Below, in pieces: positions 15,001 to 21,000 of a stretch of DNA of 64,000 nt. The stretch's first letter is position 1; each line of letters starts with the position of its first letter. This DNA comes from Sedimentisphaerales bacterium (GTDB taxonomy: Bacteria > Planctomycetota > Phycisphaerae > Sedimentisphaerales > SM23-30). Where the stretch lies: contig CAXXFK010000011.1 of the NCBI GenBank assembly GCA_963663965.2, forward strand, positions 160,001 to 224,000. Direction: 5' to 3'. The position numbers were made by a program.

Positions 15001-18000
15001 CCACCGGCACCGCCGTGTCAATATTCACGGCCCCGCAGGTAATCTGGATGATTGAATGTATGGTTCGATGGGGATTCGTCCAGGCTCGTATTAATTCCTG
15101 AGTAATCTGGGTCAGATAGGGCTCGACTTCAATGCGGTGCAGGTTCTTTGAACGGCAAAACTGCTCATGCACTACTCCCAAAGCCCGGATTCGGTCGGCA
15201 GTATCCTTCAAAGTCTTGCTGACCAGCTCGTTGTCAATGAACTCACCTTGTAACCGGATCAGGGAAGAGATCACCTGAAGATTATTCTTAACCCGGTGAT
15301 GCAGTTCCTGTAATAGAATATTCTTGTCGGCCAGACTGCGTTCAAGATGTTCTTCCATCTCTTTTCGTTGCCGGATCTCCTCCTGCAATGAACTGGTGCG
15401 TTCTATTACCTTTTGCTCCAGCTCCCGGTGATATTCATTCAAATATTCCAGCACCTTGATTTGCCGCACGACACCGGCATACTCTCCTTGATCAAATACC
15501 GCCAGAACTGCCAGATGATGCTGTTGCATTTGCACCAATGCCTCTTCCAGATTCGCCTCGGCGTCTATCACCGGACGCCGGCGCAGGCAATCAGCGATCA
15601 GGCGATGCTGAAACCTGACAACATCCAACGGAATCAGAATCCCTTGATAAACACCTTTCTTGTCAACCACAACAATATATCCGGCTTTCAACAGCGTCGA
15701 TTCCACAGCCTCAACACTAACCTCAGGCGGAAATACCGTTTGAGGAATTTCCATGAAATGCTTAACCTGCATGGCCTTCGTCTTCGGATAACTCAATATT
15801 ATCGTAACTGACTCGAACCTTGAAATCCACCTTCACAATTTCACCCTTGACTATATATGGGAAAACCCGGTCCTTCAATATCTTCATGACTTTTTCAAGG
15901 GAAATCCGTTTGAGAATTCGCTTGTTAATGATCAGAATCTCAACCAGATCATCTTCAATCTCGATTATCTCAAACTGATCCGGCTGCAGCAAATTCATAC
16001 TTCCCGTCAGACCAATTTTACCATGCGGGGATTTCTGTGTGACAACCAGGATGTCCTGAAACGGCGGTACCGCTACGTTTTCAAATGACATGCTTAATGA
16101 ATAGTTCTTACTTCCATTCATCTCTTGATTTTCCTTTCACAGATGACCTTGGCTTAAAACGAAATGCCTAGTTTTTAGTTATAAAAACGAATAACTTTAT
16201 TACACTATAAGTATTCTACCTGCTGACATCTTTCTGAAGCAAGCAAATACTATAAACAATATAGTTCGAAAAGTGCGATACCATGGCATGATTCATAGGG
16301 TCGGGCATTGGCAACTAAACTTTTTCATAGGAAACCAGAGGAAACCATGGACAGTCATCGTTTTTCTGTTCCATTATTCTTGCCCCTTGCCATTTTTAAT
16401 GGTGACGGTCCTTAGTTTCCTGATGCGGTCGCGAAGATAATGATGTTTGCCATGTTATCTAACCCTAGGCCATGAGTTTCGTTTCTTAATGTCTTAAACG
16501 GAAGCCTGGTAGGATGGGCAAACTTGTTTTGCCCATGCTGATCAAAACAACTTCCCTTCCACATCTTCCACATTCCTCCGGCAGGCTCAACGCTTCGGCC
16601 ACATCGCCGGCCATCAATCGTTCAATATACTCTGAACTGCCATATTTGGCAATAGTCGAATACGGCCACTCATCCGCCCGCTGGCTTTATAAAACACAGG
16701 GCTTTATAAAACACAGTGATCATTATTTTGTTGACAACACCCAAAATCAACATAATTCTCTAAATAATAAACCATTAAGAACAAAACCACCGATTTTTCT
16801 TTCTAATATTAGCTGCTACAAAAAAATAAATCCACAATTATTATGTTGTATAAAAAAATACATAATATTTAATTTGCTTTCAAATATAACTCGGTCTATA
16901 ATCCCACAGTCGCCCCAATAGCCCTCAAACCATCCGCCTGAACCAGGCGTGCCTCGCCCCAACCGGCCACGCCCGCAGACTACCTCTGCGCATAGACCGT
17001 GGCACCTTCAAGCGTAGCAAAGCGAAGCTTGTGGGTGCATACTTGGCCCAGGAAGCTATCTGCTGCAGATCAGACCCAACCAGCCAATTTATTTGGCTGT
17101 TAATAAGGTACGACGAAATGGAAACCAGCAAAAACAACACAACCCGGCAACCCAGCCATAAAAAGGCTTGAAAACGTAGCATGGGCTTCCAGCCCATGTC
17201 TTTTGTTCCCCGTAGATCATGGACAACCCCCGGTTGCCCATGCCGTAGGTCCGCCTCAGGAGGACGGATACCCAAAGCAGCCCAACGGGCCGGCATAAAA
17301 TAGCCCAGGGCAGAGCGAGTCCCGATCCATCGGGACGAGCGCCACCCTGGGTAACGATCATGAGATTGAAATTTTTAATCCACGCCTCGCAGAGGCGTAC
17401 CGCCAGGATATCTCGCAAAAGAGATAGATAAAACTAATCATGAGCGCAGCGAATACCAACAAAAAAACGAAACAAACCCAACATGAAAAAACATCACTCT
17501 AACCTGAACAACGAACCGAACTTAACGAAAAATAAAACCAACATCCGCCTCTTGGCGGATACCACAATTTTGCATTTTAAATTCTAAACTTTAAATTTCT
17601 AAACAGGAGGTACTACCATGTCATCGTCACTAAGAAGACTCAGAGCCAACCGTCGCAACGCCCAGAAATCCACCGGACCCAAAACCCCCGAGGGCAAGGC
17701 CATCTCGTCGAAGAATGCCATCAAGCACGGCCTCAGTGGCCAGGACCCCGCCCATCTCATTGTCCCCGGCGAGTCCGAACTCACCTACCTCGAATTCCGC
17801 GCCGCGCTCCTGCAAGACCTCAAACCCACCACCTATCTCCAGCGCCACATCGCCGACCAGATCGTTTCCGCCGCCTGGCGCCTTGAACGCCTCGGCCGCA
17901 TCGAAGCTGAAATGATCGACGCCCGCGTTTACAAACTCCGACTCACCAACGAAGAAATCCGCAAAGACACCGTCATCGACCAGCCCTTCGCCCATTCGAG

Positions 18001-21000
18001 TATCTACCTGCCCCGCCACAACGAAGTCGGCACCGCCTTCACCCTCGAAACCCCCGCCTTCAACTGCCTGGCCCACTACGAAGCCCACCTCAACCGAACC
18101 TTCCAGGCCAATCTTAAGCTCCTGCAAAAGTTGCAATTACAACAAAAACCAAACGAACCCAATGCCTACCCCCCAGAGTACCCATTTCCCGATTTACCCC
18201 GCGTCCACATCCCCGATCCACCCAGAATCCCCACACACCCCAGCGAAGCCAAATTGGCCCCCGAATACATCAAAGACCGACTCCCCGAATTGATGAAAGA
18301 CCACAGCGTAACTGACGACCAGGTCTTCAGTTACGCCTGCAACCGCTACGAAGCCCTCAACGATTTCGCCAACCAGAACGGCGAAGAAGCCCTCCACGCC
18401 CTCGGCATCCCCACCAAACCACCAGCCGACATCCCCATCCAGGAGGTTAAAAAATAAGGGTACCAAAAACCGTTACAAATACGAAGATTTATTCACGGAT
18501 CAGGCATTTTAGCTGATTCGCACGGAGCCAATGCGCAACGACTACCAGGCAGTCATTAACAACTGGAAAATCCATGCTGAACCGTAAATGAATTAACTCA
18601 ATGCAAGATAATTTTAAGATGCCATTGATCGAACTTGTCAAAACCCGATGGCTCTCCCTTAAAAACTGATCAGGTATCCATATAAAAAAAGACCTGACAA
18701 TTTATACCGTCAGGCCTTTGGTTTATCATCAATTATAATATTGCGGTTACCGCGCTTGTTCAAGAATCAGCTTACTGGTTTCACCGCTTGGCAAATTCAG
18801 CGAACCATAAGCTTGAGCGGCCATATTCCTCAATTCGACGTCGACATCTTTCGAATTCACGATATCGGTATAAATGCTGAGAATCTGTTCTGAAGCCAGC
18901 AGATTACCGTATTGTCTGGCGGAGATGGAAAGGTTGGCAAACGACAGTTTCCGAACAACGAGGTCCAGAGCGCTGTCAAGCGCCATATCGGCCAGACTGC
19001 GTTGCGAGGGCATGGAATTGAGATGCGCCAGCGATTCAATTGCGGCAATCTGGATATCAGGGCGAGAATCGCGTAAAGCCTCTATAAGAGCGCTTTCTGC
19101 GTCAATAATGGGCAGTACTTTATTATGGGTCAGGGCCAGTTCACGCAGGGTCATCGCGGCTGATCCGGCATAGAAATCGGCCAGATCCGCAGAAAAGGCC
19201 ACTGCATTATTCGTTTTCAGAATGGCATCAACTGCGCTGAAAATATCCTGTTCAGGTGAATTGATCGGCAATACCTGGACAAAAGACATTTCCGTAACAC
19301 GATTCCGGATCACCGAAAGCTTTTCCGGCTCAGCCAGAATAATTGTTGGACAAAATGCCAGTCGATAATCTTTTTTAATGCTGGCCAGCACTTCATCCAG
19401 ACTGGGATGCTGAATATTATCCGTCAGGATCATAACATCTAAACTTGGAGACTTAATCACGCGTTGCAGTGCCCTGGAATAGAATTCATCATTTTCGATA
19501 CCATCAAAACCTGCCTCACGCAGCTTCAAGGTGATTCGGCTGCGTAGTTCGGCATCCGGACTGGCGACCAGGGCATAGCGACGTCCATGCTGACGCAAAG
19601 CTTCACCAAGAATTTGAACCACCTGTTCACGCCCTTCAAACACTTTTCCAGGCAGCAGGCCTCCAATGGCAAGCGCCGCGGCAAAACGTACCTGACGATC
19701 AGAAAAACTCATGGCGTCAATTAATGGACGCTTATTTTCCAATTCGAACAAAAGCGCTTCCTGACCGGCATTGCGATTCAGTACCTTGATAGCCTCCAGG
19801 GCTACCGGACGATTGTTATCATTTAGCGCTCTTGCCAGTACGCGATGGAGATATTCCGGTCCGGCAGTCAAAGCGTAGGTGGACGCGTCAGCATGGCCGG
19901 GACCAGCCTCAGGTAGCATTCCGGTATTCTGGCAGAGATAATCCTTGATTTTATGTTCATGACGGGCGTCAAAGTATGCCGGTTGTTGAAAACCCTCTGT
20001 CTCCAGACGGAAAAATGCGGATAGCCACAAGGCTATCGAATCCGGCCGGCTTTTATCCAGTCGAACGGCATCTTCCGCGGCTCTCATGGCCATCAGTTCT
20101 TCAAAAGCGTCACGGGGTACAACTTCCCGGAACAATCCGACGCGGCTATCCCAGAACCAGATATTGGCCTGGTCCATATGGGCAGGCGCCATCAATGATG
20201 GTTCGTGATTATAGTAATCCAGCGCATTTTTTTCGAATAAACCGGCAGCGGATATATCCGTTGGCAGCATATTCGATGCGATCTGTTTAAATGTACGAAT
20301 CGCAATATTCTTCAATTCGGGGGTTGCCTGCTCGTCTTCAATGATCGCCTTGATATAAGGTAACGCTTCTGGATATCCGATTTTCCCTAAAACCTCCAGC
20401 ATAATCATCTGCAAGCTCAAGTCGCCACTGCGCTGAAGAACCACCAGTAACGGTTTCACTGCAGATTTGCCAATCTGAGGCAGCGCCCACCGAATAACAT
20501 CGAGTTCTTCCGAACGCTCAGGATCCCGTAACGCGGCAACCATAACCGGAATGGCGTATTCACCGGAATCTTTTAAACGCTCCAACGCCAACATACGCCC
20601 GCGCGTGGTACTGGATAATCGTTTGACTTCTGTGGCGATCCGTTCCACCTCAGTAGCTTTTTGACGACGCCCTTCTTCAACCAGTTTCAGAATATCTTCT
20701 GCAACGGCTTTCAACGGCGTGTCTTTTTGAAGCAGAATCAAATCACGATAGGCATTGGCATAACGGCTGCTTTCGGCCAGATCCAGTAACTGGATCGGAT
20801 CCGGTTGCGCTTCGATCAATGCCTGGCCAGTCGCAATCGCCACTTCCCAGTTGCCAATGACGGCATAATGCATGAAATCATCCCAGAGCTGACGGGTCTG
20901 CTGCGATTTATCCTGGCTGATTGCCTGTCCGCATAAACACAAACCTGACAGAAGCGTCAGAGCTACGATCTTGATAATACGGTTCTGGATCATTCGTAAC

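Follow-up and report, generated by a model that had tools for sequence, protein, structure and literature searches.

What kind of gene can hold 26 places in one bacterial genome, and how does it reach them? The copy examined here (17618..18457, forward strand, 279 aa) lies in a window of 64,000 nucleotides, the whole stretch of DNA that was analysed, from a Sedimentisphaerales bacterium. An earlier note had described this gene, family A, as belonging to a mobile element that lacks a known transposase and is under purifying selection. Our results support that reading, since the family is also multicopy in the unrelated Acidobacteria, with tens of copies and sharp ends, and since dN/dS among family A copies is 0.095. 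Its account of the copies, the tail and the missing target-site duplications held up, while promoter, unit number, homologue count and exclusivity of the module had to be revised. It included neither a polar DNA site, nor free recombination among copies, nor a polar strand skew.

An intact gene that recombines among its copies

All 26 full-length 840-nt copies, spread over 19 contigs, have a single terminal stop, and the two gene fragments beside them were found again. Identity between copies (88.9-96.1% in DNA, 91.1-99.3% in protein) and variable sites per codon position (43/25/161 on recount) agree with the earlier figures. The closest pair is 96.1% identical, whereas medians reach 97.8-100% in five of six control families. 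Beyond 15 nt, four-gamete failure stands at 76%; family A copies recombine freely, exchanging sequence in short tracts, and some have flanks in common. No target-site duplication was found in the 15 of 26 copies with a 5' edge and no terminal inverted repeats at family A copies, nor was an empty site, a new insertion or a co-moved upstream host gene, of any length, seen for the family.

The 966 homologues counted before were far too few: the family, which has no name, comprises 51,143 clusters at 50% identity. It is patchy, being present in 8/40 relatives, and a single-copy form found in 11/11 genomes of one family is read as domesticated. Some homologues are located after YqaJ-ERF/HNH genes and others after a satellite primase; ERF/HNH, methylase and other fusions in longer homologues resemble read-through of neighbours and are used as context only. 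No Pfam or NCBIfam family is common to 120 members, INPHARED phages gave no match and plasmids one. The literature searched, largely outside subscription journals, holds no account of the element or of the protein motifs.

The protein has two parts: a conserved core (residues 1-175), in which a long helical hairpin follows a basic N-terminal motif, and a C-terminal region specific to each lineage. In keeping with the earlier note, it matches no family, here at E<=10 in Pfam, NCBIfam and PHROGs, including none of DDE transposases, and no catalytic site was identified. The AF2 model is all-helical (H3-16, H24-38 and the hairpin H73-118/H147-176), with neither a HUH motif nor a Y1_Tnp match. Residues H37 and Y154 are conserved, yet form no HUH. 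Foldseek found no fold match at E<=0.001 in BFVD or PDB, a wide fold search (VIA) returned generic hairpins only, its best match (Z 7.4) covering just the hairpin, solved structures searched by sequence gave only prefoldin-type coiled coils (E>=0.48), and the ESM Atlas yielded 30 unnamed clusters with a best score of 0.94. These searches do not show that the predicted fold is new.

Anatomy of the module

On the forward strand of the window, a GTAG REP-like palindrome (16509..16536) flanks the module outside its 5' edge motif (16683..16716), a 17-bp head-to-tail duplication (16683-16699, 16700-16716). The edge stands as a motif in 15/26 copies, 183-278 nt ahead of the promoter's -10 box; the TTGACA box directly behind it, formerly taken as the promoter, is not the common one, which reads TTGCTT/TTGACT-17-TATAAT and occurs in 24/26 copies. 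In the window this predicted sigma70-type promoter, a consensus match, lies at 16874..16902 on the forward strand. Just 5' of its -35 box is an operator-like inverted repeat (16841..16866), imperfect here; the form TGTT-N12-AACA is found in 10/26 copies and recurs where the host repressor-terminase locus is controlled, in 4/6 repressor-locus intergenic regions.

Most hairpins of the leaders are small REP-like palindromes whose order is shuffled. Short GTAG-tagged ones, with a mini-insert (17176..17264, forward strand), are variably placed in leaders and belong to a class described in PMC3733652. Rfam gave no match in 16400-18700, with one sub-threshold hit (E 0.62). The head of the leader unit (17440..17524, forward strand) comprises the anchor (17440-17455), a polar motif (17470-17481) and a TAA-N19-TTA box (17500-17524). 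Instead of the 1-8 units once claimed, we count 1-4 anchors per copy between promoter and gene, a figure that includes an insert of similar appearance; on contig C36, a gap of ~1.9 kb splits the 8-anchor case. The window copy has a single anchor and thus no tandem array.

A ribosome-binding site, AGGAGG (17605..17610, forward strand), precedes all 26 starts, and all 26 copies carry the polar motif within the gene just past the conserved core (nt 533; 18151..18162, forward strand). The 3' tail (18496..18537, forward strand) pairs 18496-18503 with 18513-18520 and ends in TGCGCA (18532-18537). Both tail features recur on recount: T[GA]CG[CT] in 20/26 copies, 70-90 nt past the stop, and a 5-9-bp stem in most tails. 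The tail opens TAAC-like and closes GTTGCGC-like, with a stem between, yet its geometry does not support likeness to attC. In integron cassettes R''/R' boxes with paired L boxes directly follow a promoterless gene, and the cassettes form arrays with an integron integrase; the copies here are single, with promoters, at 26 places. Nor does geometry support a resemblance of TTATGTTAAAT, close to the promoter, to Xer/dif sites.

Family A shares its edge, promoter and units with gene-less arrays and with family B. The latter is a second, unrelated multicopy gene, whose fold search gave only weak winged-helix look-alikes (score 0.79-0.80). The earlier stress on the 3' hairpin and on hairpin units seen as RNA-like was probably misplaced, since what stays constant across phyla is a double-stranded-DNA-like site.

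A polar DNA site

The motif AAAC[GA]AA[GC]CCAA, often followed by the TAA-N19-TTA box, lies inside the gene and the leader units. It occurs at 258 places in the genome, against 3-16 for controls, and permuted controls rule out a chance origin in C-rich DNA. Among homologous loci it is found at 69/83 (reversed pattern at 10; upstream windows 6/49) and in all three frames (16/17/21), and at 0/6 loci of a single-copy form in which the N-terminal motif is missing. Gene and site stay associated across phyla. The motif has multiplied throughout the genome in 4/8 gene-bearing relatives and in 0/32 without a match; genome G154, with 32 motif matches yet no listed gene match, counts against the explanation we prefer.

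The site is double-stranded-DNA-like, combining helically phased direct repeats with a spaced palindrome. Spacing between motifs peaks at 10-11 nt and 89-91 nt, and the TAA-N19-TTR box stands at a fixed offset from 131/258, 29/144 and 22/65 sites, as opposed to 8, 3 and 1 when shuffled. As far as sequence tells, this geometry is that of a protein-binding array. As in iteron replicons, phased direct repeats are joined by a ~90-nt AT-rich spacer and a candidate box for a host bending protein. The fit of that box to the IHF consensus is partial (55/258 within one mismatch vs 16 shuffled; none in genomes G030 and G036). The in-gene motif lies in a low-complexity linker. In viral contigs we found 118 stretches with the composite site; no family A gene lay close to any of them, and they are probably chance.

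Likeness to terminase genes

Residues 8-38 match phage genes directly ahead of large terminase and portal genes, and only phage proteins with these residues were found directly before TerL. The TerS calls of those phage genes come from position and weak matches (E 0.003-0.04). The layout of the AF2 model is like that described for TerS (PMC9611059), and P1 pac has hexamer repeats and an IHF site inside pacA (PMC10028697). Our protein is like phage TerS in having a ~20-kDa core with a basic N-terminus and a predicted helical hairpin, and a tail that varies; it is like TerS/pac in its asymmetric site within or next to the gene, in repeats that surround a bendable spacer, and in a TerS-slot N-terminal motif. 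Phage TerS with an embedded pac (P22 gp3, P1 PacA) and satellite TerS such as that of SaPI are well known. Unlike them, family A is a solitary gene that has a promoter of its own, occurs in tens of chromosomal copies and has no linked portal or capsid gene. Against a TerS reading, homology spans 43 columns only, and TerS profiles (PHROGs, Pfam, NCBIfam) do not match the window protein. The 14 phage loci sharing the N-terminal motif hold only 3 polar-motif matches, all loose, so the shared motif is a putative reader of the polar site.

A lone TerL is retained in 33/41 genomes of the host order. At the TerL locus here we did not find the 140-aa partner that usually lies upstream; its slot is taken by a family B module. 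None of 95 homologous loci had a match to this genome's TerL in its flanking DNA. Of three structural families tried, HK97 capsid (PF05065) and portal (PF04860) had no match in this genome, and PF06074 none anywhere, controls included.

Strand skew beside the site

The strand bearing the site is C-rich for ~40-60 kb upstream of polar sites, and the skew drops within ~5 kb downstream. At four-fold sites, in genes of both strands, the upstream skew is 0.11 at a distance of 60-80 kb and 0.21-0.45 within 10 kb; from 5 kb downstream it is 0.07. Ramps are gradual, and upstream exceeds downstream at 52/68 sites (p 2e-7). A one-sided model yields an R2 of 0.32 of the genome's skew variance (null maximum 0.19), and nine transposon families lack the pattern. 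In G042, a second planctomycete, the one-sided model gives R2 0.36-0.39 (null maximum 0.28-0.30; downstream 0.01-0.04); the per-site test is weak, with upstream skew positive at 8/10 sites and above downstream at only 5/10. The window copy itself has a negative upstream skew (-0.13), whereas 21/24 copies are positive. Small windows of four genomes (G030, G036, G041, G043) were negative: asymmetry was absent in 20-kb windows (upstream above downstream in 7/17 for G030/G036, 9/20 for G041 and 7/13 at other loci) and in 35 short flanks (20/35, p 0.23). Cytosine deamination is rejected as the sole cause, since the gain in C comes at the expense of all three other bases, with no sequence context standing out.

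Proposed mechanism and its rivals

The reading we prefer, to which we give a little less than even credence, is that a free-living TerS-like gene and its pac-like site cause one-ended breaks, repair synthesis and spread by gene conversion. The minimal selfish element would be a promoter, a TerS-like DNA-binding gene and a polar recognition site that, as in phage pac, would sit in or right behind the gene. The protein may oligomerise via its helical hairpin, bind the motif array and recruit a nuclease: here possibly the host's lone large terminase, elsewhere an HNH protein or a phage terminase. The cut would leave a single free end, repaired by recombination-dependent, error-prone synthesis heading upstream, with the motif's complementary strand as the leading strand; repeated rounds could leave the skew. 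Repair off non-allelic copies would produce gene conversion, shuffled or tandem leader units and swapped flanks, and could copy gene and promoter into gene-less sites, homing-like, without target-site duplication or terminal inverted repeats. Family B and REP-like palindromes may ride on the same sites. In E. coli, according to PMC3607216, break-linked mutagenesis decays over ~60 kb and break hotspots are two-sided; the skew here is one-sided, which counts against our reading.

Homing endonuclease elements spread by break repair and gene conversion and need no end structures, a mode that we propose for family A; unlike them, it has no recognised nuclease domain, keeps its site within the element and is tied to no intron or intein. 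IS91/ISCR rolling-circle elements also lack target-site duplications and terminal inverted repeats and have a polar site 3' of the gene, and the proposed process would likewise run back across the gene into upstream host DNA. Family A differs in being half the size, with no HUH/Y2 transposase match, and in copies that are never near-identical, recombine freely and show no co-moved host genes. We know of no mutational skew beside pac sites.

The main rival, possible though rather unlikely, is a unidirectional iteron-type origin whose own initiator loads a helicase and makes no cut. The motif repeats would be iterons, and the box with its AT-rich spacer a bending and unwinding region; frequent firing would override replichore skew, and copies would spread by recombination of amplified DNA. 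Iteron origins with an embedded initiator are known from lambda O and iteron plasmids, and lambdoid O genes hold the site inside or behind the gene. The repeat phasing and AT-rich spacer, the site in a low-complexity linker and the polarity all recall them, a satellite homologue is coupled to a primase gene, and the skew changes sign at two copies standing back to back in G042 and at 23.5 kb on contig C22, not at dnaA. Genes upstream are more often oriented away from the site (457 vs 300), as on a leading strand, yet the bias has the same sense among genes downstream (408 vs 327). Against an origin also stand the absence of any winged-helix or known initiator fold from fold searches that gave generic hairpin matches only, the lack of a helicase-loader neighbour, the chromosomal multicopy spread, the N-terminal motif in TerS-slot genes, the G041 copies without nearby skew, and short-tract conversion, which the origin model alone leaves unexplained.

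We think it improbable that the module is a true pac cassette for transduction, with a redirected helper-phage or GTA terminase packaging headfuls upstream from the site and strand-biased uptake and recombination in sibling cells leaving the skew. A decay length of 40-60 kb suits a headful, upstream packaging would take gene and promoter in most homologues, and the TerS-slot motif, conserved TerL and satellite context agree. However, the genome has no capsid or portal match, relatives carry the PF05065 capsid in 12/41 cases vs TerL in 33/41, the skew plateau in G042 is ~80 kb, and transduction, which brings a locus back to its own place, gives no account of 26 new sites.

Slightly less credible still is that the gene is cargo of REP/RAYT single-strand transposition, in which Y1 HUH enzymes of the host would move modules bounded by REPs, their orientation following the replication fork. 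GTAG/GTGG palindromes occur in leaders and next to Acidobacteria copies, target-site duplications and terminal inverted repeats are lacking, the genome holds 11 Y1_Tnp matches, an unrelated gene shares the module, and fork-linked targeting by Y1 HUH enzymes is known (PMC6006769). REPIN/RAYT, as described in PMC3733652, share the GTAG palindromes, old diverged copies and absent duplications; here every copy has an intact non-HUH gene, and the constant is a direct-repeat array with its polar motif, not REP. This rival predicts equal skew on both sides rather than a drop at the site, the Y1 genes of this genome show no such pattern, and the intactness of all 26 copies is unaccounted for. Least probable is a host-beneficial, nucleoid- or SOS-type DNA-binding family with repeat recombination and skew steps at rearrangement breakpoints: purifying selection, the domesticated form, common flanks and variable downstream skew (sd ~0.2) fit, but patchiness with bursts to tens of copies and gradual ramps absent at other repeats do not, and breakpoints should affect both sides alike.

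Implications

A family of tens of thousands of clusters at 50% identity, still without a name, gains a candidate cognate site, an anatomy and a genomic footprint, so its function becomes directly testable. Should the sites start forks or breaks, this would be a transposase-free mode of spread, in which selfish DNA would rewrite codon usage, recombination and the spectrum of mutations across much of the chromosome. With more reserve than for the mechanism itself, we suggest a widespread, undescribed class of selfish elements, each a single gene descended from packaging genes of phages or satellites, that would start one-directional synthesis from their own sites so frequently as to outweigh oriC, in some bacteria, in shaping strand asymmetry along much of the chromosome; one bacterial genome would then in effect contain many replication starts borne by elements. 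Such elements could explain the absent replichore skew of some Planctomycetota and Acidobacteriota, perhaps including Solibacter, for which PMC3174227 notes a 'lack of strand bias', and our reading points to a function of the capsid-less terminase locus that the host order retains. It could also explain spurious low-complexity ORFs made of the polar motif; over 92 loci, ORFs built of motif repeats were the only conserved gene neighbours.

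Results

Family A, the unnamed 279-aa gene with a window copy at 17618..18457 (+), has retained its coding integrity across the source genome. The earlier note had counted 26 full-length copies; tblastn recovered all 26 and one C-terminal fragment, and a second, N-terminal fragment was picked up by profile search. As had been described, each of the 26 is 840 nt long with a single stop, and they are spread over 19 contigs. They share 88.9-96.1% identity at the DNA level and 91.1-99.3% at the protein level, and variable sites number 43, 25, and 161 at codon positions 1, 2, and 3. 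By comparison, median identity is 97.8-100% in six ordinary mobile families of the source genome. Among the family A copies dS is 0.28 and dN/dS is 0.095 overall (core, 0.064; tail, 0.159). The tree of the copies is star-like, and its inner branches are weak. Of the informative site pairs separated by more than 15 nt, 76% have all four combinations; the copies thus act as a recombining population.

The 5' edge, the tail end, and the lack of a target duplication likewise agree with the first description. A shared promoter (window 16874-16902) is present for 24 of 26 copies, and the leaders combine the same modules, mosaic-like, in differing order. The 5' edge of the window copy is doubled head to tail (17 bp; window 16683-16716), two other copies have a second edge motif further upstream, and a lone edge-like motif lies at window 13735 (G000:C11:173735), 3.9 kb ahead of the gene. 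The source genome also has leader units in arrays of 3-6 with no family A gene directly behind, at G000:C36:7800-9400, C42:49400-50700, C32:170400-171600, and C28:583500-584100. Window 22560-35498 encodes a repetitive surface-type protein of 4,312 aa.

No family library searched named the protein. All 812 close homologues are unnamed, and a profile search reached 51,143 representatives of 50% clusters at E<=0.001 (34,674 at 1e-10; 9,440 at 1e-30). Within the conserved core (residues 1-175), N14, S18, P21, N33, G38, W87, and R91 are invariant in both alignments, and R12, H37, E52, P70, and Y154 are conserved at 90% or more. The core is predicted (pLDDT 84) to form two short N-terminal helices and then a long helical hairpin; fold searches with the model returned nothing informative. 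Seventeen viral contigs matched, 15 of them aligning with only the first ~40 residues. In most of the 15, the following genes encode ~600 and ~550 aa, and scanned followers matched large terminase (TerL) in two of three cases and portal in one of one. Small-terminase (TerS) matches, all weak, were found for two of five viral proteins bearing the N-terminal motif, and profile-profile likeness to phage genes is restricted to 43 columns. In phages L103-L117, the gene ahead of TerL fuses this motif to a four-cysteine domain (phrog_26872).

The polar DNA motif AAAC[GA]AA[GC]CCAA occurs 258 times in the source genome, versus 3-16 times for five permuted patterns: 26 within family A genes, 53 in their leaders, and 179 elsewhere. 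These group into 123 clusters, 122 of which have all motifs on one strand. The distance from one motif to the next is 10-11 or 89-91 nt, a spacing that points to an array bound by protein on one face of duplex DNA. A TAA-N19-TTR box stands at a fixed distance behind 131 of the 258 (8 shuffled), and recurs in homologous loci and two relatives. The box is a partial fit to two inverted IHF sites; 55 of 258 fit the IHF consensus within one mismatch (16 shuffled), with none in genomes G030 and G036. The source genome has one HU/IHF-family gene. A relaxed motif was counted from -100 to +1500 nt around the gene in loci with enough flank (three duplicates dropped, several loci sharing a genome). Of 83 homologous loci, 69 have it, in any reading frame; the reversed pattern is in 10, and upstream windows have the motif in 6 of 49 cases. 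It is missing from 6/6 loci of a single-copy form without the N-terminal motif. Of 40 relatives, eight have the gene, and four of these show an expanded motif; none of the other 32 does. One phylum genome (G154) has 32 motif matches and no family A match among 15 candidates scored. Motifs also lie 114-121 nt past the stop codon of an ordinary gene on the same strand at G000 C18:63460, C23:93342, C37:1186, C37:73139, and C7:126024.

Host genes beside these clusters carry a one-sided skew, measured as C over G on the motif strand at four-fold degenerate sites. On the upstream side it is 0.11 at a distance of 60-80 kb and reaches 0.21-0.45 inside the last 10 kb; by 5 kb downstream it has dropped to 0.07. 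The profile holds for genes on either strand. Among 68 testable clusters, 64 are positive upstream and 52 exceed their downstream side (p 2e-7); the difference is 0.19, versus 0.08 for the largest of 200 controls. C increases at the expense of A, G, and T without context preference, and four-fold GC climbs from 0.62 to ~0.70. The skew is present beside family A, family B (below), and gene-less clusters alike. A one-sided decay with a length of 40-60 kb explains 32% of the variance in 1,432 5-kb bins (null mean 0.10, maximum 0.19; downstream-only model 0.08). Nine transposon or intron families of the source genome show no such pattern. Of 24 copies, three are exceptions to the upstream skew, the window copy among them. 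In 800 kb of G042 (Phycisphaerales), all-position skew stays at +0.3 to +0.45 on the upstream side of a plus copy; on that of the minus copy 17 kb away it is -0.26 to -0.38. For the ten clusters R2 is 0.36-0.39 (null maximum 0.28-0.30; downstream 0.01-0.04), with a weak per-site test. Asymmetry is absent from 20-kb windows of G030, G036, G041, and G043 and from 4-kb flanks of 35 loci. Two genomes show a real effect; at the scale tested it is not a general one. Separately, a family that looks Y1-transposase-like by sequence (seven places in G000, e.g. C20:163917-164867; copies 97-99% identical) has third-position C of 0.56-0.75 at places distant from any motif cluster.

Family B, unrelated to family A (~261 aa, ~15 copies, some frameshifted; e.g. 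G000:C10:77078-77863 (-), with about 14 further places, L118), has the same promoter, and its motif lies 309 nt ahead of the stop, versus 306 in family A. Its dN/dS is 0.14 across the first 90 codons, its protein is possibly winged-helix, and no homologues were found outside the source genome. Directly behind one family B module sits the single-copy TerL gene, kept in 33 of 41 genomes of the order. Its locus (G000:C30:122206-131760; L134-L141) holds a CI/LexA-like repressor, an HTH gene, an ABC ATPase, a presumably GNAT-like gene, sometimes ParB, and a small HTH gene; a 140-aa gene in 6/8 loci was not found in the source genome. Portal and HK97 capsid were sought in that genome and neither matched; the locus, with no linked portal or capsid, is a domesticated phage module. 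A TGTT-N12-AACA palindrome common to 4/6 TerL-locus control regions and 10/26 family A upstream regions (copies that are not independent) hints at co-regulation.

Family A is patchy, matching in 8/40 relatives and 18/200 phylum genomes. A Bryobacterales genome has 109 matches and a Terriglobia genome 33 (matches, not copies). Ten copies from each of two Bryobacterales subfamilies have sharp ends adjoining REP-like palindromes, and their median identities of 92% and 91% resemble those of the source genome's copies. Homologues lie behind YqaJ and ERF-DUF968 genes in Bradyrhizobium; in an integrase-repressor satellite they follow a DUF3854 primase, and they also turn up in a prophage-like region. 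The satellite-like L195:8112-16708 encodes, in order, a serine integrase, IrrE-like peptidase, HTH, DUF3854 primase, family A, and type I restriction genes, with the motif reversed immediately past the family A stop. A core-only, single-copy homologue (f36; L182-L187), without N-terminal motif or DNA site, occurs in 11/11 genomes of one family; in 5/6 loci it is directly ahead of an ACP-FabZ-FabF cluster, which we take to resemble the anammox fatty-acid cluster.

Discussion

Leading strands are G-rich in most bacteria. If that holds here, the skew has the sign expected of any process in which the complementary strand of the motif is made or exposed running upstream from the site. We tentatively favor a reading in which a TerS-like family A protein would mark the site for cutting, and the cut would lead to one-ended break repair. 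It would unite the protein's affinities, the pac-like layout of gene and site (PMC9611059, PMC10028697), a decay length matching that of break-linked mutagenesis (PMC3607216), the short tracts of conversion, the tandem units of the leaders, and spread in the absence of end structures. An iteron origin served by an initiator of its own would account equally for site geometry and skew, but it leaves the TerS link and conversion unaccounted for, and we consider it rather unlikely. Both readings fit better than packaging for transduction, which is improbable, or carriage of family A as REP/RAYT cargo, slightly more so; a host gene family with rearrangement breakpoints also fits less well and is the least probable. 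Binding, cutting, synthesis, and spread are each inferences here.

In its working, the element is closest to a small terminase subunit together with its pac site, or to an IS91-type polar element. It lacks the operon context of a TerS and does not classify with DDE or HUH transposases. The literature searched gave no description of family A, its site, or the skew. Motif repeats also give rise to spurious MQNKPN-type ORFs in 12 loci (L001, L028, L034, L038, L041, and others) and are a likely source of false hypothetical proteins.
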